From a bacterium (GTDB lineage: Bacteria; Bdellovibrionota_B; Oligoflexia; Oligoflexales; RGVZ01): DNA of 64,000 nucleotides. The notes under the pieces are model-generated. The model was given only the letters and a program-made list of their open reading frames with translations. It was not told the DNA's origin and did no database searches. Positions 205 through 64,000 of the stretch are shown one piece after another; positions within the stretch are counted from its first letter, which is position 1, and the number at the start of each line of letters is the position of its first letter. The stretch lies in assembly GCA_037134655.1 (NCBI GenBank), contig JBAXLR010000001.1, positions 4,294-68,293 on the forward strand, written 5' to 3'. The translations under genes and the position numbers were made by a program.

Positions 205-1179
205 ATGGAGAATGCGGCAATGACGTCCGACGATCGCACCAAGAGTATGACTCCGGCAGAGGACGGGAATACAGACAAAAAACCTGGTTCTCCTGCCATG
301 TCAGATTATTTACAAGCTCCACGAAAAAAACGAAAAAGTTTTGTAGCTTTTGGTATCGGCCCCAATTTGGACGCTGATACCATTTCAGCAATCCAGAAAT
401 TTTTTGCCTCTCAGTATCCAAAACTTGTTGTTTTAACGGTGAAATCTCCCGATGAGCTCGTGAAGCTAGCCAGTAGGAATATTGTATTGACGCTAATAGA
501 TGATGAATTAGCTGAACGCGACGAGACACTAAAAGCTGTTCGCAGCCTTAAAGAAAAACGCTCTAACGCCCCACTTCCAACTCTATTTTTCACCAACGAT
601 GTGCCGTCGCTAATTGCATCTTATCAGGGCCATCTACCTCTTTGGCACGAAGTGGACGACTATTTAAGTCTGGCGGAAAGCCCACGGCACAAGTTATTTG
701 AGAAGATCAAATCTTGCCTTGAAAATCGCAATCAGCGACGGGCGAGAAGGTTCAAGACAAATATACCCATTACGTTTCAGATTCTCGATTCGGGAGAGCA
801 CCGTTTTCAAGGAGAGATTGTAGACTTTAGTCTTCATGGCGCAATGCTGGCTGCCGCAGGCAATACCCATAGGTTTAGCACGAAAGATCAGCTGGTCATT
901 CACTTCCCCCTAAGCCAGTATGTGCACGGCAAAGCTGATTTTTTCAGGATATCTGCACGAGTACGACGGGTGATTATTTCTGGCGACAAAGCAGGTATCA
1001 GCTGGGAGTACCTAACCGGCGAAAAAGTTGGAACACTTACAGAAATTTTGACCACGATCGTTAGCGCGGGGCTAAGTCGGGCGGCCGCCTCCACTAGGCA
1101 GCGATACAGCAAGTTTTTAGAAGTGCCATCTGAGGCAGATCAGGCCAAGGGCAAAGATTCTCGAAAATATGAGTATTAA
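205..1179 (+). CDS. PilZ-domain (c-di-GMP binding) protein with N-terminal receiver-like domain
   Basis: RRARR ... DFSLHGAML matches the PilZ RxxxR / D-x-S-x-x-G signature. The N-terminal ~130 aa has a receiver-like pattern (VLTLIDDEL). Confidence 0.7.
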   Translation: MENAAMTSDDRTKSMTPAEDGNTDKKPGSPAMSDYLQAPRKKRKSFVAFGIGPNLDADTISAIQKFFASQYPKLVVLTVKSPDELVKLASRNIVLTLIDDELAERDETLKAVRSLKEKRSNAPLPTLFFTNDVPSLIASYQGHLPLWHEVDDYLSLAESPRHKLFEKIKSCLENRNQRRARRFKTNIPITFQILDSGEHRFQGEIVDFSLHGAMLAAAGNTHRFSTKDQLVIHFPLSQYVHGKADFFRISARVRRVIISGDKAGISWEYLTGEKVGTLTEILTTIVSAGLSRAAASTRQRYSKFLEVPSEADQAKGKDSRKYEY

Positions 1180-2914: not shown

Positions 2915-3269
2915 GGGGCCGTCATGGTTTCGACATGCACGGTCGTCGAGTCAAAGCGCATGTCCGGGGTGGGTACGTCACCCGGTTATTAAAGGCGGAC
3001 CAACGCTTATTCGGCAACGAATACGCACTCGCAGCTTAATTAAGCTGCCGTCGAACCCAAAGCGGCCACGGCTTTGGGGGATGGCGCAATCGATGTGGCT
3101 TGGTGTCAGGGACTTCCGTCTGGAGTTTCGGGCATGACGACAATCAGGCTGCGGTCGGATGAGCCTGTCTATGGGCGCATAAGACAAGAGGATAAATCAT
3201 AAGACTAAACATGTAGTGCTTTTTCCGACGCGTGTATGGACGCGGGTTCGATTCCCGCCGGCTCCACCA
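2915..3269 (+). ncRNA. ssrA: tmRNA (transfer-messenger RNA)
   Basis: 5' GGGGCCGTCATGGTTTCGAC and 3' GGACGCGGGTTCGATTCCCGCCGGCTCCACCA are the canonical tRNA-like ends. Internal tag frame ggc aac gaa tac gca ctc gca gct taa encodes ...GNEYALAA*. Confidence 0.92.
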
Positions 3270-54741: not shown

Positions 54742-54763
54742 AGGTTTTTCTTCTCTGGAGAAT
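54742..54763. repeat. 22-bp perfect direct repeat, left copy
   Basis: aggtttttcttctctggagaat is identical to 62171-62192. Confidence 0.9.
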
Positions 54764-54899
54764 CTGTACCATTGCAACGCACGTATCTGACGCCGATTTA
54801 AGATCTGACCGCCTTTTGCTTGTGCGCTCAGACAGTTTCCTGCCTAAAAATGGCTCTAATTTTATCTATCAGGGCAGTGCTTTATGTTCTCATCACAAA

Positions 54900-57053
54900 T
54901 CAGGAACGGCTCATCCCGGCTTCCCGAACAACTGGGTCGCGCTTTAAAAATTTTAACGGTGGCAAAAGTACATTTTTATATTTGGTCAAATCCACCTCAT
55001 TGACTGGATACAGCAGGAAGCAATTTAGATCCCCTCGCGTTATTTCGAGCTTTTCAACCCAAACCTTCAATTCGGCCGATGACGGTCCTGAGTCTTGCTT
55101 AGGACCTTTTTGCGAGAAAGCATCGATTTCTTGCTGTTGGCCTTCCAGGGGGAGGTCTGTAATTTGTAGCTTAATGCCCTTGGTTGAGGCCTGCTCAATA
55201 CGCGTGAGCAGATGACTTGCCTTTTTGACCAATTCTTTATTTGAACTCTTTAACGAGCCTTGAAGATGCTTCGCGGCCATTTCTAGATCGCCGTAGCGAG
55301 AATAGCCAAGACCCAGATTATACATGACTGCAGCTCGCTTTTCTTTCCAGGATACCGGAATTACGTTGAGCGCATCCTCGTAGAGTTTAATGCCTTCATC
55401 AAAGCGGCCGCGATGCACAAGCGCAATAGCCCTGGCATTCATCGCAGCTATAAAACGTTCGCCTTTGTCTAAACTAGATAATATTTGCCGCGAGGCTGAT
55501 ACGTCTCCGGCAGACAACTTAAGTAAGGCTGCGTGCTCAGCGACAGCCTCATTTGTTCCATCAAGAGATTTCGCTCGGTCCACCGCTGACTGCGCAGCGG
55601 GAATATCACCTTTATTGAGATGAATTTGACTCATGGCTATCAGCCTATCGATATTTTTTGGAGACTGCGCCTGCGCTTTCTCGAAAAATTTGAGAGACAT
55701 CTCATAGTCTTTTTTATACAAAAAAATCTTACCAAGTAAGTTCAATGCCGAAATCGATCCCTGACTTTTCTCAAGGGCTTGCAAAGCTTTCCGGGAAGCG
55801 TCATCTAGTCGTTGATTCGCAAAATCAAATTCAGCCTGTAACTCCAACTTCACAGCCGCTTCAATGCGCACGTCTAAGATTACGTGTGCCAACAGTCGCT
55901 CAGCTTCTCCAAGTCGCCCCATGTCTATGGCTCTAATGATTTTTGCGTGTAGCGATTTTTGCTCAGTGGGTCGCACATTCTCCTGCATTACAGAAACAAT
56001 TGTTTTGAAAAAGATCTGACCGTCGAAGGGCTTTTCCAGCACATCATCAACACCGATTTCTCGCAGCAAAACACGATCCTCCGGCCCAACGAGAGAGCTG
56101 CATACAAGTGTCAACGTATCAAATGCTCGAGCCTGCCTTAGGCGCTGTATCAAAAACGGCCCAGGTAAATCGGGTATGCGCCATTCGCAGATGAAAAGCT
56201 TGGGCGGGGGGTTGGCCGTGAGCCAATCCATCGCCTCACTCCCAGTTTCGAACGTTTCAACAGACTTAACACCAGCGTCAGTTAAAAGATTTTTTATTGC
56301 AAAAAGAACATCTGTATCGGGATCAACGACAACAACCGAATGTAACTTTAGAACATCCTCCCTTTGAGTCGATGTACTTTTTGCTCCATTTGCATTAACA
56401 CCTAGCTTTTGCATTTTCTTTGCTAGGAGCTGCCCAGCGCGTTTATCAATAAGCTGAATTTGTTGGGCTAATGATGACGCCAAGTCCTGCTGCCCACAGT
56501 AGGCAAGTGACTCCACTAAATTTGATAGTACGAAAGTTGAACCCGGGAACAAAGAAAGATAAGTTTGATCAAGCTTTAGAAGATCTTGATAGTTTTTGGT
56601 CTCGATTAAATGCAGCCTCAAAAAGAACGAAGAGACCAGGCTGGCTTCCCCTGAATAAAGCCGATCAAGGAAAAATATTTGATCAAAGCTTCGCTCCAGA
56701 TCATCGCGAACATAGTTGTTGGCATGGGATGAAAACAATCCAAGCGCAAATGCCAGAGAAAGAAACTGACTTTCCGATGTAGGATCATAAAGAAGGCTGA
56801 CTCGTAACTTGCGCAAAACCGGCTCAGCCCTAACGAGGTTTAAAATTTTCAAAGTATTAATATTCGCGCCAAGATCAAACGGCGCAATGAGCCAGTCCAC
56901 ATGCTCAACCTCAAGAAAATGAATCGCCTCCTCGCCACCCGCTACTGCTTGGATATCTGTCATTCCACGATTTTTCAATACATCTAGCAGCATATGCCGA
57001 ACAGAGCTCACGGGATGAACCACTAAGACTTTAAGATTTTCCATTCCTGCCAT
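54900..57053 (-). CDS. dual pseudo-receiver + TPR-repeat signalling protein
   Basis: Two CheY-like domains with non-canonical acceptor positions (WLIAPFDL; LFICEWRIPDLPG has Glu where Asp is expected). These are followed by multiple TPR-like repeats. Confidence 0.6.
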   Translation of the reverse strand: MAGMENLKVLVVHPVSSVRHMLLDVLKNRGMTDIQAVAGGEEAIHFLEVEHVDWLIAPFDLGANINTLKILNLVRAEPVLRKLRVSLLYDPTSESQFLSLAFALGLFSSHANNYVRDDLERSFDQIFFLDRLYSGEASLVSSFFLRLHLIETKNYQDLLKLDQTYLSLFPGSTFVLSNLVESLAYCGQQDLASSLAQQIQLIDKRAGQLLAKKMQKLGVNANGAKSTSTQREDVLKLHSVVVVDPDTDVLFAIKNLLTDAGVKSVETFETGSEAMDWLTANPPPKLFICEWRIPDLPGPFLIQRLRQARAFDTLTLVCSSLVGPEDRVLLREIGVDDVLEKPFDGQIFFKTIVSVMQENVRPTEQKSLHAKIIRAIDMGRLGEAERLLAHVILDVRIEAAVKLELQAEFDFANQRLDDASRKALQALEKSQGSISALNLLGKIFLYKKDYEMSLKFFEKAQAQSPKNIDRLIAMSQIHLNKGDIPAAQSAVDRAKSLDGTNEAVAEHAALLKLSAGDVSASRQILSSLDKGERFIAAMNARAIALVHRGRFDEGIKLYEDALNVIPVSWKEKRAAVMYNLGLGYSRYGDLEMAAKHLQGSLKSSNKELVKKASHLLTRIEQASTKGIKLQITDLPLEGQQQEIDAFSQKGPKQDSGPSSAELKVWVEKLEITRGDLNCFLLYPVNEVDLTKYKNVLLPPLKFLKRDPVVREAGMSRS

Positions 57054-57065
57054 AAATCTGAACTT

Positions 57066-57815
57066 CTACTCGTTATGGTGGTTGGGGATAAAAGGAATAA
57101 GTTTCTGGTTAACAATGTAGGCGATAACGCTGTCCCGACAACTTGAGTCCAAACTTGAGATGGCCAAACCAGCTTCGACACTCAACGGTTTTTCAGGGTG
57201 CAAGCGCCTCCAAACAAGAGTCGCAGATCCCTCTAGATGTTTCACATCACCAGTCAAGAAACTAAATTCGTAGTCGACGTTTGAACCCAAGGGAATTTCC
57301 CCCAACTCCTGAAAACCCTGGACATAAAACCCGCCCCTTCCAAGGCAGATGCCGAGATTAGCGCTTAAATCCCCAACCGTACTAAATTCACCAATGATTT
57401 TTTGGGAGGATGGCGGCTGTGTTGAACTCCAACGCGTTGCTGCGGGTAGCAATGCATTGTGAATCGCTTTCTCGAGGACTTGGCTACTGAATGGCTTTGC
57501 AATAATGCCATCAGCACCCATGTCGTATGCCTCTTCGATACTAAAATCTGAAAACCCACTCATGAACAAAAATGGAGGTGACTGCGGATTTTTTTTACGC
57601 AGTTCTGTCAGCAATCTCGCGCCGTCCCACCCAGGCATTCGTATGTCTGAAATAATTAAGTCAAACGATTTGTTACCCGCCGCCTTGAAGCCTCTCTCTC
57701 CGTCCTCGGCTGTCGAGGTCTCAAAACCCATCGCCTGAAGTTCTGCTTCAGCTGCTTCGCGAAAGCTTTTTTGATCTTCGACAATTAAGATCCGAGATTT
57801 TGACGATTTATTCAT
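57066..57815 (-). CDS. response regulator (canonical receiver) with C-terminal PilZ-like beta-barrel domain
   Basis: ILIVEDQ, LIISDIRMPGWDG, FMSG and AKPF are the receiver residues. The C-terminal ~110 aa are beta-rich without a clear RxxxR. ATG at 57815 with a GAGGA RBS. Confidence 0.7.
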   Translation of the reverse strand: MNKSSKSRILIVEDQKSFREAAEAELQAMGFETSTAEDGERGFKAAGNKSFDLIISDIRMPGWDGARLLTELRKKNPQSPPFLFMSGFSDFSIEEAYDMGADGIIAKPFSSQVLEKAIHNALLPAATRWSSTQPPSSQKIIGEFSTVGDLSANLGICLGRGGFYVQGFQELGEIPLGSNVDYEFSFLTGDVKHLEGSATLVWRRLHPEKPLSVEAGLAISSLDSSCRDSVIAYIVNQKLIPFIPNHHNE

Positions 57816-58140
57816 ATAAAGATCCTCGACACGTATAGTACTCACCATTGTACGGCCGACGCCTGAGGGTTGTCGAATGACTACATGAGACCATGTCTTA
57901 GCTTATGGTTTTGGGAAACACGACGTTACACATCAACCTAAAATTATGTTTATATTGTTCTATTTTCATTTTTTTCATATTTCGCCAAATACGTTTGGCC
58001 AATCACAAACGGCCCGCCGGGTAGCGGACCCACAAGTTGCGGAGAACTGTGGCCTTACAGGGCTAAGGTTTACCCCCGAGGGCTCCGATCCACCTGCCAA
58101 TCATTGAGACCTTTCTGAAACGCCTAGGGAGTTTGAAATT

Positions 58141-61005
58141 ATGTCTTTCGAAACTCAAACATCATATAACCCAACAGCAGAAATTTCGAAGAACAGTCTT
58201 ACGACGGGTTACAGTAACCCAGATTTATTTCTTTATCGAATCATGCTCGGTTTTTTCTCTGTTGCTCCAGTTTTGAGCGAATATCTGACCTTCCAAATTC
58301 GGGGGGACATTAGTCCCAGTTTCCTTGGAAGCCTTGCGTTAAGTATCAGTAGCTTGGCTATTTTTGTCTGGTCGCAACTTAAAAAAGACCTCAGGCAGAT
58401 GATGGTTCAAACTGCTTTCGTCCATGCAGTCTGCTTGTCGGGGATTTTTTTTAGCTCACCCGAGCTAAAAACAGAACATCTAATCTATCTCAGTATCTTC
58501 CAGCTCGTGATTGGGATGCTCCTTAGCGAAAAAGCCCCAATTTATTCAGCCATATACGCCGTAACCACCTGGAGCATTGCGGTTGGTATTGGAGCTGCGG
58601 GTACTTCCCGGTCAGAAGCGTTTGCCCCCGTTAACGACTTGCCCCAGATATATGCTTGGTTCATTTTCATCGGTTTTCTAAGCATGAGCGTCAGCAACCA
58701 GAGAAGAAGGCAAGAGCATGAGCGTGCCATGCGGACTTCTGAGACAGATGCTCAGAATCATAAATCCATGAAGCTTGAGAGCATTATTAACGAAACTCAA
58801 TCTTTGGCAAAAATCGGTTCCTGGCATTATGAGCCCATCTCTAAATCGCTCACATGCTCACGTGAGATGCGCTTGATTTTTGAAATAGACGAACATCAAT
58901 CGTCCCATGAACTCCTAAGAAGTTGTCTTGCGAAAATTCACCCACACGATACCGGGGCTTTCAAAAAATTAGTTGAGAAAGCAATTTTATCTGGAGAGGA
59001 TTTTTCATACAGTGGCAGAATACTTCTGGATGGTGATGGACGAACGAAACATCTCCAAGTTATGACAAAATCCACAAAAAACTCCGCGGGCGACGTGATT
59101 AGTATTCGTGGCAGTGTCCAGGACAAGACCCGGGACATCCAAGAAGAGGGACGATTCAGCGCCGTCATCGAGGCCATGAGCGAGGGGCTAGTTATTCAAG
59201 ATGATACCGGCGCAATAATAATGCACAACTCAGCCGCACCGGAAATTCTTGGACTAAGTGCGGACCAATTAAATGGCCGGACCTCAATGGATCCAAGGTG
59301 GAGAGCTGTGAGGGAAAACGGCGATCCATTTGAGGGCCAGGATCATCCCGCGATGGTCTGCCTACGCACAGGCAAACCACAGCTTGGTGTTACGATGGGA
59401 CTTCATTTACCAAGTGGTGATTTGAGATGGATTCGAATCAATGCCGTGCCTAAGGCAAATTCACCACACAAACGCGTGGTCTGTACTTTTACCGACATCA
59501 CAGCTCTTGTTGCGGCAAATGATGAGATTCGATTTATACTTGATTCCCTAGGAATTGGTATCTGGCAGTTCAATCCTCGCACGTCAGAGCTATCCTGGGA
59601 TAACTCGATGTATAAACTTTTTGGCGTGAAGCAAGAAGATTTTTCGGGCGACTATCAGGCTTGGGAAGCCATGCTCACACCAGAGTCTCGCTCATCAGCT
59701 ATTCGTGATCTAGATATGGCGCTTCGCGGCGAAAAAGAATTCAACTCCACGTTTGAGATCAAGACCACATCAGACGAAAAACGTTTTATCGCTGGTCGCG
59801 GAAAAGTTCAGCGCGATGAACTTGGGCAGGCTCAGATGATGTTTGGCATAAACTGGGACCGCACCAAGGAAGTGCTTGATGAAAGCGCTATGGAGCGCCA
59901 ACGAGAACTCATCGAGGCCGTGCTAAATAATCTTCCAAACATGGTCTTTGCAAAGGATTACAATAAAAATCTAAGCCTCATATTATTCAATAAGGCAGGT
60001 GAAAAGCTTCTGGGTGTGAACGCCGCAAATCTTATCGGTAAAAATGACCACGATCTGTTCCCAAAACAAGAGGCGGATTTTTTTACATCTAAAGACCGCG
60101 AAGTTTTTGCAAAAAGGGAAACTCTTAAAATTGACCAAGAGATTATTTCCACCCCATCAGGACAGCGCTATTTACGAACCTACAAAGTCCCGACGTATCG
60201 TCATGATGGGACGCCGGATTTGCTGATTGGAATTTCCACTGACATTACCGACGAAGTTAAGATGCAGGAATCTCTTGATGCTGAGCGTGCAAAATCCATG
60301 CATACGGCCAAACTTGCATCCTTGGGTGAACTTGCAGCCGGTGTAGCGCACGAGATCAATAACCCACTTGCGATCATTTCGGGCAACATACCGCTTCTGA
60401 AGCGCTTCAAAGATGACCCTGAAAAACTAAATGAAAAGCTTGAGGCAGTTAAGTCATCAGTGGAACGCATAACCAAAATTGTAAATGGCCTAAGAAAATT
60501 CTCCAGGACCTCAAACGACAATAGCCACACAAAGCACAAGCTAATGAAACTTGTAGACGAGGTCGTCGTACTCACCGACGTTAAGGCTAAGCGCTTTGCC
60601 ACTCCAATCGAATGGGAGTTGACGTCGAATTCTGAAATATCTTGTGACCCCTTTGAAATTCAACAAGTGGTGATCAATCTTATAAATAATGCTGTAGACG
60701 CCGTACAGTCGATGGCAGAAAAGTGGGTTAAAGTTAAGTTATTTGATGAAGAAAGCCAGGTCGTCTTACAGGTTATAGATTCAGGCCCTGGGATATCAGC
60801 CGATGTTGAACTAAAGCTTTTTCAGCCATTTTTTACGACAAAGGCCGTCGGCGAGGGTACAGGTTTGGGACTTTCGATTTCCAAGGGAATCTGTGAGCAA
60901 CATGGCGGGACTCTAACTTTGAATCGTAAGGTTGCGCATACCTGCTTTGAAGTGAGATTTAAAATCGCAGGCGTCCGAGGACTAGGAGGCCAACATGCCG
61001 CTTAA
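58141..61005 (+). CDS. membrane-bound multi-PAS sensor histidine kinase
   Basis: N-terminal TM helices, about 4 PAS-like modules, HisKA (AHEINNPLA) and HATPase_c (NLINNAVDA, DSGPGI, GTGLGLSI). Confidence 0.88.
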   Translation: MSFETQTSYNPTAEISKNSLTTGYSNPDLFLYRIMLGFFSVAPVLSEYLTFQIRGDISPSFLGSLALSISSLAIFVWSQLKKDLRQMMVQTAFVHAVCLSGIFFSSPELKTEHLIYLSIFQLVIGMLLSEKAPIYSAIYAVTTWSIAVGIGAAGTSRSEAFAPVNDLPQIYAWFIFIGFLSMSVSNQRRRQEHERAMRTSETDAQNHKSMKLESIINETQSLAKIGSWHYEPISKSLTCSREMRLIFEIDEHQSSHELLRSCLAKIHPHDTGAFKKLVEKAILSGEDFSYSGRILLDGDGRTKHLQVMTKSTKNSAGDVISIRGSVQDKTRDIQEEGRFSAVIEAMSEGLVIQDDTGAIIMHNSAAPEILGLSADQLNGRTSMDPRWRAVRENGDPFEGQDHPAMVCLRTGKPQLGVTMGLHLPSGDLRWIRINAVPKANSPHKRVVCTFTDITALVAANDEIRFILDSLGIGIWQFNPRTSELSWDNSMYKLFGVKQEDFSGDYQAWEAMLTPESRSSAIRDLDMALRGEKEFNSTFEIKTTSDEKRFIAGRGKVQRDELGQAQMMFGINWDRTKEVLDESAMERQRELIEAVLNNLPNMVFAKDYNKNLSLILFNKAGEKLLGVNAANLIGKNDHDLFPKQEADFFTSKDREVFAKRETLKIDQEIISTPSGQRYLRTYKVPTYRHDGTPDLLIGISTDITDEVKMQESLDAERAKSMHTAKLASLGELAAGVAHEINNPLAIISGNIPLLKRFKDDPEKLNEKLEAVKSSVERITKIVNGLRKFSRTSNDNSHTKHKLMKLVDEVVVLTDVKAKRFATPIEWELTSNSEISCDPFEIQQVVINLINNAVDAVQSMAEKWVKVKLFDEESQVVLQVIDSGPGISADVELKLFQPFFTTKAVGEGTGLGLSISKGICEQHGGTLTLNRKVAHTCFEVRFKIAGVRGLGGQHAA

Positions 61006-62089
61006 TGTTTACTATTTAGACGATGAACAGGCACTTTGCGACGTATTTCGCGATACCTATAGTTCAGATGACGTGCATGTTCTGACATTCACAGATCCAG
61101 CTGCTCTGATCCAACAATCGAAAAAAATGCCGCCGGATCTTGCCTTCTTTGACTATTGTTTGCCCTTCACGACTGGAGATAAAGTCGCGCAGGCACTTGA
61201 TCCAATAATCCCAAAGGTTCTGGTCACCGGTGATACTGGGCTTGTCAGCGACTATCCGTTTGTCAAAGTCATTTATAAGCCATGGGATGATAACGATGTT
61301 ATTCAAATTTTAGATGCAGCACTAGACAAGAAAAAATGCAGAATTAAGAGTGAAACAATTCCTGAGATTATAGCCTCTGAGAAAGCCGTTTGTTTGGATG
61401 TAGGCGTCGGTCATATCGCGCATGAACTTAATACGCCACTTGCTGTAATCAAGATGCGGGCTCACCAACTAACAACATTATTAGAAAAAGACCTCCTAGC
61501 CGCGAACATCAAAGAAGAAGTCTCACGACTTGCGGGCATTATCGAGGGCACAATTGATGAGATGACGACGTCACTTCGGGAGATGCGCGACGCTGTGAAG
61601 ATGGATACCGCTGAGGTATCGCAGGCTTGTGATATTCGCGAGTCGCTTGAAATCGCAAGTCACATAATTAAGCGAAGCGAAAATCAAATCAAACTTGACG
61701 TAACTAAACTTGATTTTGGCGTTAACGCGATGTGTAAGCCTCAACAAATGATACAGATCTTCATGAACACCCTAGGGCATCTAATCTCTTTGAACGCGGT
61801 AGCTAATCCTAACAACAAGATATCGGTTACATCAGATCTTGCCGGTGGCAAAATTTTGATTCGCATGAGTATAAATTTAACGCTGCTGCCCACAGACGCC
61901 AAAGATGAGATGCCATATGACTCGTTGTATCTGTTTAAAGGTAGTCGCAAAACTAGGGGCCTAGATCTGGCTATCGCAGAGAAACTTGCAAAGGCTAACC
62001 GCGGCGCAATAGAGACCAGCACGGATGGGGCCAAACATATTGTTGTTTTCAGCCTGATATCTGCGCAGGAGCAACTAAAAAAGGCCTAG
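60995..62089 (+). CDS. receiver + HisKA + degenerate HATPase-like hybrid signalling protein
   Basis: VYYLDDE, LAFFDYCLP, LVTGD and YKPW form the receiver. HIAHELNTPLA is the H-box. The C-terminal GLDLAIAEKL is a weak G2 box. Overlaps the kinase gene by 11 nt. Confidence 0.65.
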   Translation: MPLNVYYLDDEQALCDVFRDTYSSDDVHVLTFTDPAALIQQSKKMPPDLAFFDYCLPFTTGDKVAQALDPIIPKVLVTGDTGLVSDYPFVKVIYKPWDDNDVIQILDAALDKKKCRIKSETIPEIIASEKAVCLDVGVGHIAHELNTPLAVIKMRAHQLTTLLEKDLLAANIKEEVSRLAGIIEGTIDEMTTSLREMRDAVKMDTAEVSQACDIRESLEIASHIIKRSENQIKLDVTKLDFGVNAMCKPQQMIQIFMNTLGHLISLNAVANPNNKISVTSDLAGGKILIRMSINLTLLPTDAKDEMPYDSLYLFKGSRKTRGLDLAIAEKLAKANRGAIETSTDGAKHIVVFSLISAQEQLKKA

Positions 62090-62116
62090 AGTCTAACTCT
62101 AAGCCTTTGATTTTGT

Positions 62117-62166
62117 TGGTAGCGGGGGTAGGACTTGAACCTACGGTCTTCGAGTTATGAGCCCAA
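62117..62166 (-). pseudogene. orphan 3' portion of a tRNA-Met (CAT) gene: anticodon arm, variable loop, T arm, acceptor 3' strand, CCA
   Basis: Minus-strand sense is ttggg-CTCATAA-ctcga-agacc-gtagg-TTCAAGT-cctac-ccccgct-ACCA. No complementary 5' acceptor strand (agcgggg) or D arm lies upstream. Confidence 0.7.
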
Positions 62167-62170
62167 GAAG

Positions 62171-62192
62171 AGGTTTTTCTTCTCTGGAGAAT
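62171..62192. repeat. 22-bp perfect direct repeat, right copy (4 nt from the tRNA fragment)
   Basis: aggtttttcttctctggagaat is identical to 54742-54763. Confidence 0.9.
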
Positions 62193-62229: not shown

Positions 62230-63183
62230 TCACTCGCCAAAAATAGCAGCATCAAGCCGGTGAAGAGCAGTCGTAAACTCATCCGCAAGCTTCTCGGCTC
62301 GAAAAAGCTCCTCCTTGCGGACAACTGGATCTATGAGAATGAGCTGCTGGCCGACTAATCCATGCTTTTTAGCGCGATTGATATCGTAGTGCATCTGCAG
62401 AGGTCGAGATGCCGCATCTCCAAAGTTTCTGCGCACCAGTGCTGCGAGAGGTGATTCTTTACGGGTGAATTCTATTCCTTCAAAAATTTCGAGAGCCATG
62501 GCAAAAGGCAATATTCCGAGTTCAGCGGCTTGATCAAGCAATGCGACCACTTTTTTTGTCTCTGCAAGTACGCCACCCTGCCAAGGGCCGATTTGATCGA
62601 TAACTTTCTGTAAAAATTTGTCATGGCCCATTTCGTCGTTACGAAAATCTGTCAATGCAACGCTAAACTTTGGATAATTTTTGATTGCTTTCTCGAGTAT
62701 TCGATCGCAATTAGAAGTTACGTAAAAATTTTGAAAAACCATCTTTTGAGCCATATCTTTTCCGGCAGAATCCATATCCATTCTAGGTGATTTTGACTCG
62801 CTCACTGATTGGGCACTAAGTAGCTTACGCCGAAAGTAGGTGAGAGCAGCCAAGCCATCATACTCATCCGGGATATTTGTTTTACTAAAGGCAAAAACAT
62901 TAAAATTATGAGAATCGGTTGTTTCAGAATAATGACTCAGACCGTGAATCCGCACAAATGCGACTGGATAATCAGAAAATGGTGCTAAAAAGCTGGAGAC
63001 ATGCTTTCTGCATTGCGGATCATGAAGGTGTTTAGCGCAATAATTCGCGAAGGATTGGGCTGCTGGATCAACGTCAGCATTAATTGTTAGCCACGGCGTG
63101 AGTAAGGATAGTTGACATCCATCTATCTCAGCCTGAAGTTCTGGATAAGGCTCAAACCTAAGAGAGCTCTGACCCTGCATCAT
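62230..63183 (-). CDS. hypothetical cytoplasmic helical protein (possible haem-oxygenase-like / iron-dependent redox enzyme fold)
   Basis: 317 aa, no signal peptide. FRNDEMGHDKF contains an ExxH-type motif. The start ATG overlaps the upstream lipoprotein stop (ATGA). Family assignment is tentative. Confidence 0.35.
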   Translation of the reverse strand: MMQGQSSLRFEPYPELQAEIDGCQLSLLTPWLTINADVDPAAQSFANYCAKHLHDPQCRKHVSSFLAPFSDYPVAFVRIHGLSHYSETTDSHNFNVFAFSKTNIPDEYDGLAALTYFRRKLLSAQSVSESKSPRMDMDSAGKDMAQKMVFQNFYVTSNCDRILEKAIKNYPKFSVALTDFRNDEMGHDKFLQKVIDQIGPWQGGVLAETKKVVALLDQAAELGILPFAMALEIFEGIEFTRKESPLAALVRRNFGDAASRPLQMHYDINRAKKHGLVGQQLILIDPVVRKEELFRAEKLADEFTTALHRLDAAIFGE

Positions 63184-63512
63184 AACTCCCTAACACAATC
63201 AAATATATTCACCATACGCGCCGGTACAACTTCTTTCACAACAACCCAGCCGTCCCTACAAGGTGGAGTGACGCACGTTTTAATCTTGACCCAATCGCCA
63301 CTTTTATCCTTAAGACCGCAACCCTCCACATAGCGAGTCTCTTCTTTTGTTTTTTTCTTGGATTTCTTCTTGGCCGGCTCGGGTTCTTTTTTTTCAGTTG
63401 CACCCGAGCTGACGGGCTGATCACGGGACACTGCCTCAGAGCCGTCAGCAATGACGCAAGCTGAAGTTAAAAGGCCCGCGAATACACTGCTGGATAATTT
63501 AAAAAGACTCAT
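63180..63512 (-). CDS. small lipoprotein with Lys-rich linker and 4-Cys C-terminal domain (paralog 1)
   Basis: Lipobox LLTSAC. KKKSKKKTKEE linker. YVEGCG...C..PPCRDGWVVVKEVVPAR...C..EL. ATG at 63512 lies 6 nt after GGAG. Confidence 0.55.
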   Translation of the reverse strand: MSLFKLSSSVFAGLLTSACVIADGSEAVSRDQPVSSGATEKKEPEPAKKKSKKKTKEETRYVEGCGLKDKSGDWVKIKTCVTPPCRDGWVVVKEVVPARMVNIFDCVREL

Positions 63513-63680
63513 AAGCATCTCCGAATGTGGAAGAGACAAATCGTGATTCTCGCTTATTGACGTTAGAAAAAGGCTCTCGCACCAAATTTACAAGTCCTGT
63601 ATTAAAAGAACCTATTTCATAATTTAACTTACTATCGTTATCCAAAAAATCTCACCCTTATGTGGAACTCTGAATACGAG

Positions 63681-64000
63681 TCATAATTCCATCGCTGCAC
63701 ATCTAAGCTCCTTCACGATTCGCGCTGGTACAACTTGCTTGACAATAACCCAGCCATCTGCGCAAGACAAAGTCCCGCAACCACTTTCAAAATTCTCATT
63801 CGTCATGGTCGCTTCGACCTCGATCCAATGACCGCTTGTATCCTTACGACCGCAGCCCTCCACGTAGAGTTTTTTTTCCTTTTTTTGCTTTTTTTTCTTA
63901 GATTTCTGCTCGCTGTGTGGGACTTTCACCTTCTGTTCAGTTGTACCCGAGCTGACGGGCTGATCACCGGATACTGCCTTAGAGCCGTCAGCAATGACGC
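63681..64000 (-). CDS. paralog 2 of the 4-Cys lipoprotein (5' end beyond the window)
   Basis: The frame stays open from 63929 to the window edge and encodes VIADGSKAVSGDQPVSSGTTEQK, matching paralog 1. The C-terminal part is YVEGCG...CGTLSCADGWVIVKQVVPAR...C..EL. Confidence 0.55.
   Translation of the reverse strand, partial: VIADGSKAVSGDQPVSSGTTEQKVKVPHSEQKSKKKKQKKEKKLYVEGCGRKDTSGHWIEVEATMTNENFESGCGTLSCADGWVIVKQVVPARIVKELRCAAMEL

Follow-up and report, generated by a model that had tools for sequence, protein, structure and literature searches.

What could a cytoplasmic oxidase do for a bacterium when the only gene that accompanies it from locus to locus encodes a small exported protein? The question is raised by a locus at one end of a 64,000-nucleotide stretch of DNA (hereafter the window) from a member of the Oligoflexales (GenBank assembly GCA_037134655.1, contig JBAXLR010000001.1, positions 4,294 to 68,293). 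Here, a gene for a 317-residue protein, called the enzyme gene throughout, lies downstream of two tandem paralogous genes, lipo1 and lipo2, each of which encodes a small pre-protein with four cysteines (Table 1). The TGA stop codon of lipo1 and the start codon of the enzyme gene share the tetranucleotide ATGA, as an earlier note on this DNA had described. From fold and ligand pattern, the enzyme is predicted to belong to the heme-oxygenase-like dimetal oxidase (HDO) superfamily as a divergent member. The reading favored in the following, with a probability of roughly 0.4 and largely by analogy with other exported precursors, is that this oxidase modifies the small Sec-exported pre-protein, so that the two would form an enzyme–substrate pair.

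A Rare and Strictly Linked Gene Pair

Both protein families are rare, and they match in rarity. Among 5.8 billion proteins, the enzyme is represented by 7 clusters at 90% identity and the small protein by 12, and a word-indexed protein search with a 44-sequence enzyme profile returned 9 proteins. The pair was found at one locus only among 185,579 species genomes. This sole species-representative match (L008, CAYOEM010000022.1; L and P numbers denote loci and proteins of the comparison set) belongs to a metagenome-assembled genome (MAG) labeled "uncultured Polynucleobacter sp.", a label suspected to stem from binning and not from true taxonomy; the other matches come from metagenome assemblies of unclassified bacteria. 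Phage collections gave no match, and plasmid collections one weak match only.

The linkage between the two genes is strict. At every locus with readable DNA (L001, L002–L004/L016, L005, L006, L007/L017, L008, L012, L013, L014, and L015), a homolog of the small protein (101–131 residues) is encoded directly upstream of the enzyme with a stop/start overlap of 4 or 11 nucleotides, and this arrangement persists down to 34% identity for the enzyme and 32% for the small protein (L014). On the contig of P0020, the DNA of which was not itself read, a gene for 97 residues overlaps the enzyme gene from upstream in like manner. The flanking genes are unrelated among the loci (aconitase/tRNA, D-Ala-D-Ala ligase, TonB_C, fasciclin, enolase), and no other gene is common to them. 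The co-occurrence of the two families, which the earlier note had suggested checking, thus holds for every related locus examined.

A Predicted HDO-Type Oxidase with an Asparagine Ligand

No model in Pfam (including PF14518) or NCBIfam matches the enzyme at E ≤ 1, and scans of all three proteins (enzyme, lipo1, and lipo2) against PHROGs and PADLOC gave nothing meaningful. An AlphaFold2 model built from 8 sequences is of good quality (pLDDT 84, pTM 0.82) and consists of an N-terminal domain (residues ~9–80) with four strands, two helices, and the motifs PYPEL and PW, followed by a helical bundle. Foldseek aligned the model to 3dde, CADD, FlcD, TenA, UndA, HmuO, and PolF in the PDB with a probability of 1.0, and the target-normalized TM scores to 3dde, CADD (1rcw/8vag), UndA (6p5q), TenA, and HmuO lie between 0.51 and 0.68. 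As modeled, the C-terminal domain has the seven-helix heme-oxygenase-like fold.

The ligand pattern agrees with this fold. Searches of the PDB sequences with profiles of 8, 44, and 139 enzymes yielded only a weak match to MboA (E = 0.2–0.3; E = 0.2 in HMMER for the 139-sequence profile), which was nevertheless used because all six ligand positions coincide one to one with the published iron ligands of MboA, E86, H89, E143, H172, D176, and H181 (PMC13185094). The motif NDEMGH, an ExxH motif already recorded in the earlier note, supplies the first ligand pair. In the alignment of 44 sequences, no variation occurs at E184, H187, E235, N269, or H274 and hardly any at H265; in that of 139 sequences, E184, H187, E235, and H274 show no variation, and H265 and N269 very little. 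Of the canonical HDO set E-H-E-H-(D/E)-H, which sits on core helices α1–α3, five of the six members are in place, the fifth position being occupied by asparagine (N269); asparagine among the last three ligands is predicted for about 4% of HDO groups (PMC11363339). The fold and the six positions shared with MboA together argue for a divergent HDO of an E-H-E-H-N-H type with a novel β-rich N-terminal domain, and from the same two features metal binding and O2 activation are predicted. The earlier note had left the protein unassigned and possibly iron-dependent; an iron-type redox enzyme is indeed what fold and ligands suggest, and the superfamily can now be named.

The enzyme stands at the fringe of PF14518, and its HDO membership is backed by fold and ligand geometry, not by a Pfam threshold: the model matches 6 of 44 distant relatives (best E = 2.3e-7), and a relative from Ralstonia, at 25.1 bits, stays below the cut-off of 28.9. 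Among 1.84 billion representatives, a profile search retrieved 252 such distant relatives, and the alignments of 44 and 139 sequences drawn from them show that this wide family shares the same N-terminal domain and the E-H-E-H-N-H ligands. The N-terminal domain resembles the RiPP recognition element (RRE; RiPP, peptide synthesized by the ribosome and modified after translation) and PqqD only in its strand-strand-strand-helix-helix order. No sequence similarity to RRE/PqqD was found: a profile of 35 N-terminal domains matched neither a PDB entry nor the Pfam PqqD model at E ≤ 10.

No open reading frame (ORF) for a signal-peptide/Cys protein was found at the loci of the distant relatives P0022, P0085, and the Ralstonia homolog. 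The last of these is encoded on the ~335 kb megaplasmid of Ralstonia solanacearum CFBP2957 (NZ_CP115953.1), where the incomplete table of PLSDB lists no gene; a supposed nucleotidyltransferase downstream of it was discarded (no Pfam match; BLASTP E = 0.56). In L010 and L011 of the wide family, the enzyme gene overlaps a gene for a Pol-β-type nucleotidyltransferase, followed by a major facilitator superfamily (MFS) transporter and a GNAT protein.

Surroundings of this latter kind, which look like a small-molecule cluster, raise the first alternative to the enzyme–substrate pair. The oxidase might act on a small metabolite (an amino acid, a fatty acid, or a peptide-derived compound), while the exported 4-Cys protein would not be its substrate but a partner, with a periplasmic role in binding, carrying, or sensing the product or in protection against it. 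Most of the known HDO substrates are small molecules (PMC13108848), and the N-terminal domain is common to family members that have no small protein beside them. Nevertheless, the neighborhoods examined share no further gene for biosynthesis or export beside the pair, and a lone oxidase with neither pathway nor exporter would render an odd service to a periplasmic binder. Nor does this alternative account for the conserved signal peptide, the invariant C-terminus, and the tandem variable copies described below; it is one of the two main rivals and appears less likely than the enzyme–substrate pair.

The Small Four-Cysteine Protein

Fifteen homologs of the small protein have in common an N-terminal signal peptide (judged by rule from n, h, and c regions together with a lipobox or A-x-A site), a Lys/Pro/Ser linker of low complexity, and a ~55-residue domain. 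Mean pairwise identity is 50% in the signal peptide and 57% in the domain, and only 25% in the linker. The domain pattern that the earlier note had drawn up from the window is present there as EGCG-x-KD...W...C...C-x-GW-x-V...VP...C-x(2,3)-EL, and the part that is invariant among the 15 homologs reads G-C-G-x-K-D...W...C...C-x-x-G...V-x(3)-V-P...C-x(2,3)-E-L-COOH. All four cysteines are invariant in this set, and EGCG occurs once per domain. In lipo2, which the window truncates and for which the complete orthologs P0014, P0015, and P0017 and a complete copy in L013 were used, the domain contains an insertion of 10 residues and likewise ends in EL. The Glu-Leu pair at the extreme C-terminus is kept in lipo2, whose stop codon overlaps no gene, in L014, despite the other overlap geometry there, and, in a two-domain variant, only at the end of the protein. 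It must therefore reflect a constraint on the protein and not a by-product of the gene overlap.

No fold could be assigned to the domain. The small protein matches nothing in Pfam and NCBIfam (E ≤ 1), PHROGs, PADLOC, or the PDB sequences, and its AlphaFold2 model, with three strands, is weak (pLDDT 56) and finds no Foldseek match above a probability of 0.06. In particular, the lack of Pfam and NCBIfam matches at that threshold speaks against membership in DUF2282, BUF_6/12Cys, or the EGKCG-repeat proteins. The statement of the earlier note that the Cys domain belongs to no described family thus stands for all of these resources.

The same note regarded the small proteins as lipobox lipoproteins, which applies to part of the family at most. 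The cysteine of LLTSAC is retained in all variants of the window lineage (lipo1, lipo2, and the two-domain variant). When compared with the lipobox pattern [LVI][ASTVI][GAS]C, this lineage reads L-T-S-A-C, with threonine at −3. In orthologs at 35–44% identity, the position of the lipobox cysteine is taken by valine or alanine and a typical A-x-A site is found instead; an alternative signal peptidase I site of the window lineage, between VIA and DG, aligns with this A-x-A site. Therefore, judging from these alignments, the lipoprotein character is at most a lineage-specific feature and not a family trait.

In the genes, the Lys-rich linkers correspond to runs of 7–9 A (plus-strand T) together with short repeats of AAG/GAA. 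Their length varies among strains by multiples of three, up to ~8 KKE repeats in L015. Slippage in such tracts could act as an on/off switch for the genes; no copy with a frameshift was observed.

Four invariant cysteines on a Lys-rich tether, next to an enzyme with an iron-type ligand set, would also suit a co-regulated metal or redox stress pair without any enzyme–substrate relation. The 4-Cys protein would then be a periplasmic metal binder or redox buffer and the heme-oxygenase-like protein would deal with cytoplasmic iron or O2 stress, and it is in keeping with this idea that bufferin-type proteins are copper buffers (PMC11626156). However, a stop/start overlap kept down to 34% identity implies more than co-regulation, and the neighborhoods have no conserved metal-responsive regulator or transporter. 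Moreover, unmodified periplasmic 4-Cys domains normally form disulfides and not metal sites, all of which makes this explanation improbable.

Tandem Copies and Strain Variation

The two paralogs follow each other head to tail at the spacing of 543 bp given in the earlier note. The repeat tract of 70 nucleotides at their 5′ ends is 91% identical; in the slightly shorter interval on which that note had relied, 63393–63456 versus 63936–64000, 60 of 64 positions agree (93.8%), and nowhere else in the window comes close. The 3′ halves have diverged, as the note had estimated at roughly 70% identity: the measured value is 74%, at a spacing of 504 owing to an indel. The spacer between the two genes lies outside the repeat, since in L013 the stretch 229–608 aligns with 778–1109 only.

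The idea that the array continues beyond the window did not hold. In L013, which is 96.6% identical to the window, the order is the 3′ end of a tRNA-Met gene, lipo2, lipo1, and the enzyme gene, after which the contig joins window position 54763. By this gene order, the array is one of two copies and ends at the tRNA-Met gene.

Next to an enzyme that is 92–99% identical, the number of Cys domains varies from one to three among related strains. An intact tRNA-Met(CAT) gene and a single small gene are found in L001. The latter is a hybrid, lipo2-like in its upstream region and first ~40 codons and lipo1 in its 3′ half, as unequal recombination within homogenized 5′ tracts would produce. Both L012 and L015 encode, besides lipo2, a protein of 200 residues with two Cys domains, giving three domains in total; this two-domain protein is only 30–45% identical to lipo1, and the adjoining enzyme is 92–97% identical. 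The paralogs of L013 share 95% identity over the first 40 codons, where the synonymous divergence (dS) is 0. In the Cys domain, dS is 0.78 and the nonsynonymous divergence (dN) 0.22, which gives ω ~0.28. These values point to recent gene conversion at the 5′ ends and purifying selection on the Cys domain, and positive selection between the paralogs is ruled out by ω. Of the gene conversion and diversification proposed in the earlier note, the former is thus borne out by the 5′ ends, whereas the diversity, as the strain sequences suggest, arises by turnover of cassettes and domain number between strains.

A homogenized 5′ tract with diverging 3′ domains, copy and domain numbers that vary by strain, and linkers encoded by homopolymer-rich sequence are also what ordinary variable surface lipoproteins might show, with antigenic or phage-receptor-type variation generated by gene conversion and an enzyme that is merely adjacent. 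This is very improbable, given that most orthologs have no lipobox, that the Cys domain is under purifying selection, and that the pairing with the enzyme is conserved at every locus examined, whatever the neighbors. A defense-system or toxin reading was likewise considered and set aside, as the family library scans gave nothing in its support.

A Proposed Action of the Oxidase on an Exported Protein

With these alternatives in view, the enzyme–substrate pair can be described more closely. The locus would be a self-contained module of two genes, here three, in which the cytoplasmic, O2-activating non-heme iron HDO acts on the 4-Cys pre-protein before its Sec export. The conserved signal peptide and N-terminal stretch may serve as the recognition, or "leader", element. 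Two candidate sites of modification stand out, the invariant free C-terminal Glu-Leu carboxylate and the cysteine of EGCG. The carboxylate is a candidate because HDO substrates, including the peptide substrate of MboA, commonly bind Fe1 through a carboxylate; in MboA, it is the C-terminal carboxylate of the peptide that ligates Fe1 (PMC13185094). Once exported and, in the window lineage, probably lipid-anchored through the cysteine of LLTSAC, the disulfide-bonded modified domain could function at the membrane or in the periplasm, for instance as a metal-binding or redox-active factor.

Several observations favor such a scheme. The signal peptide, the four invariant cysteines, and the invariant EL are traits of a Sec-type precursor, and several variable precursor-like genes stand beside one conserved enzyme, in two families that match in rarity and are strictly linked. 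Precedents also exist. In bufferins, BufA1 is a protein of 80–120 residues with four cysteines and a Sec signal that folds as a small protein and is modified by a cytoplasmic iron oxidase (PMC11626156). The oxazolin precursor HvfA is also modified by a cytoplasmic iron oxidase, and its signal peptide aids recognition (bioRxiv 10.64898/2026.07.17.739211). RiPPs with a lipobox are known as well, in the form of the DAG-RiPPs (PMC13056109).

A number of points weigh against the proposal. Both the modification of the small protein and its role as a substrate are proposals by analogy. The precedents with a Sec signal all use oxidative enzymes that depend on multinuclear non-heme iron (MNIOs, DUF692) together with an RRE partner, and neither an MNIO (DUF692) nor a DUF2063/RRE protein was found among the called neighbors in any locus. 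Characterized HDOs, as mentioned in connection with the metabolite alternative, act mostly on small molecules according to a review (PMC13108848). Three distant members have the same N-terminal domain and no small partner, so that the domain is not a dedicated recognition module. Two structural disulfides alone can explain four cysteines in a β domain, and the structural model of the small protein is, at a pLDDT of 56, a poor one. Finally, the fifth ligand is asparagine, so both the metal nuclearity and the catalytic competence of the enzyme are predictions.

Should the oxidase indeed modify the exported protein, the system could constitute a new class, in which an HDO and not an MNIO modifies a precursor of the Sec or lipoprotein pathway. 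The reaction would take place either at the Glu-Leu carboxylate, for example as an UndA-like oxidative decarboxylation or desaturation, or at the EGCG cysteine, with no RRE, protease, or transporter, and with precursors encoded in tandem, rapidly exchanged cassettes. This more specific proposal is put forward tentatively.

Comparison with Known Systems

The predicted oxidase has its closest counterparts among the HDOs of the MboA/UndA/CADD type (PF14518). It shares with them the seven-helix heme-oxygenase-like fold, and the spacing E-x2-H ... E ... H-x3-X-x4-H is the same as in MboA (E86/H89, E143, H172/D176/H181). Unlike these enzymes, it has asparagine as the fifth ligand in place of aspartate or glutamate, an additional β-rich N-terminal domain, and, as its partner, a signal-peptide protein instead of a ligase or a pathway of the non-ribosomal peptide synthetase type. 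FlcD and SznF are two-domain HDOs of similar length (~320 residues), and Foldseek aligns FlcD over its full length (331 columns). However, the root-mean-square deviation of ~18 Å indicates a different arrangement of the domains. In FlcD and SznF, the N-terminal domain is helical, a "superhelical linker", whereas that of the window enzyme has four strands and two helices, and the ligand set of FlcD is E-H-E-H-V-R as opposed to E-H-E-H-N-H. In FlcD, the non-canonical ligand set alters the metal nuclearity.

The small protein invites comparison with the bufferins (BufA/BufB/BufC) and oxazolins (HvfA/HvfB/HvfC), which also start from Cys-containing precursors of 80–120 residues with a Sec signal; the EGCG found here resembles the EGKCG of HvfA. 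In both groups, a cytoplasmic non-heme iron oxidase acts on the precursor, export proceeds through Sec with no dedicated transporter, and the signal peptide may at the same time serve as a leader. There are also differences: the MNIO is a TIM barrel and the HDO a helical bundle, a DUF2063/RRE partner is absent here, no bufferin or oxazolin model matches the small protein of the window, and its modification is a proposal. Membership in either group was rejected because of the different precursor family, the different enzyme fold, and the missing RRE partner.

DAG-RiPPs, the RiPP–lipoprotein hybrids of the ChrH subfamily, are similar in that a lipobox precursor is modified by an iron enzyme and matures through the lipoprotein pathway, and LLTSAC in the window lineage would correspond to their lipobox. 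On the other hand, their enzyme is an MNIO with macrocycle-forming chemistry, and the lipobox here is limited to one lineage and has threonine at −3. The sole association between HDO and RiPP genes found in the literature is that of thioamidated RiPP clusters of the thiovarsolin type containing HDO genes. These differ from the present pair in being actinobacterial, in their use of YcaO-TfuA, and in their short leader–core peptides, which have neither a signal peptide nor a Cys domain. No case of an HDO alongside a Cys protein with a Sec signal turned up in the literature searched.

Organization of the Locus and the Neighboring Variable Block

The longest ORF of lipo1 extends upstream of its likely start codon, the ATG at 63512, which has a GGAG sequence 6 nucleotides upstream and coincides with the start of the 110-residue MEI6832401.1 in the NCBI record of the MAG that contains the window. 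Downstream of the enzyme gene lies a remnant of tRNA-Met(CAT), the 3′-terminal 54 nucleotides of which (62111–62164) share 96% identity with the intact tRNA-Met of L001. It scores 23.2 bits against the Rfam tRNA model, below the gathering score of 29, and ARAGORN reports no tRNA there. In the whole window, ARAGORN detects a single RNA gene, that of a transfer-messenger RNA (tmRNA) with the tag peptide GNEYALAA.

Table 1. Features of the enzyme–small protein locus, with positions in the window unless a contig is named.
Feature	Position	Strand	Remarks
Enzyme gene (317-residue ORF)	62230–63183	minus	from the ORF list; cytoplasmic; NCBI MEI6832400.1, "hypothetical protein"
lipo1 (110-residue pre-protein)	63180–63512	minus	signal peptide with LLTSAC, Lys-rich linker, 4-Cys domain, C-terminal EL
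lipo1, longest ORF	63180–63539	minus	
GGAG upstream of lipo1 start	63519–63522		
lipo1/enzyme overlap (ATGA)	63180–63183		
lipo2 (paralog)	63681 to beyond 64000	minus	5′ end including signal peptide truncated by window end; no stop before
lipo2, complete copy	L013 228–608		
lipo2–lipo1 spacer (168 bp)	63513–63680	minus	outside repeat; paralog similarity starts at start codon
Repeat tract, lipo1 and lipo2	63388–63457 and 63931–64000		
3′ halves compared	63208–63275 and 63712–63779		
Lys-rich linkers	63339–63400; 63862–63915; L015 ~840–910		
Predicted ligand codon E184	62632–62634	minus	
Predicted ligand codon H187	62623–62625	minus	
Predicted ligand codon E235	62479–62481	minus	
Predicted ligand codon H265	62389–62391	minus	
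Predicted ligand codon N269	62377–62379	minus	
Predicted ligand codon H274	62362–62364	minus	
tRNA-Met(CAT) remnant	62111–62185	minus	directly downstream of enzyme gene
Terminator-like hairpin	62080–62108	minus	13-bp stem, then T run; after operon and tRNA remnant; consensus scan only
Strain-variable block (7.4 kb)	54764–62168		across the tRNA remnant from the gene pair
22-bp direct repeats	54742–54763 and 62169–62190		
tmRNA gene	2915–3269	plus	
Strain-variant loci	L001 9630–10004; L012 1151–1681; L015 542–1814; L013 228–1109		
Wide-family cluster	L010 989–4797		
Ralstonia homolog	L018 4485–5534		

The strain-variable block encodes four two-component signaling proteins: a response regulator (RR) with tetratricopeptide repeats (RR-TPR), a second RR, a PAS histidine kinase, and an RR-HisKA protein. 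It is flanked by the 22-bp direct repeat aggtttttcttctctggagaat, and the 54-nucleotide tRNA-Met 3′ copy lies at the inner border. A genomic island integrated at a tRNA was considered for this context; the block encodes only the four signaling proteins, and no integrase. The near-identical contigs L001 and L013 lack the block and both carry the gene pair, which is therefore not cargo of the block. The earlier note had placed the array on the island side of the tRNA fragment; the variable block in fact lies on the other side. In L012, the end of the RR-TPR gene and a tRNA remnant are located upstream of lipo2, as if the block had been circularly permuted or inserted at the tRNA.

Significance

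HDOs are a fast-growing superfamily known almost wholly for small-molecule chemistry, and RiPP-like proteins with a Sec signal have so far been tied only to MNIOs. If the link between the two genes is not one of enzyme and substrate, the finding reduces to a rare conserved operon. The asparagine-for-aspartate ligand variant is in itself an uncharacterized cofactor type. If the oxidase does modify its exported neighbor, the chemistry of HDOs would extend to whole exported proteins, and the logic of a Sec leader combined with an iron oxidase would have evolved twice on unrelated folds. The pair would then offer a minimal two-gene system in which this can be tested directly.

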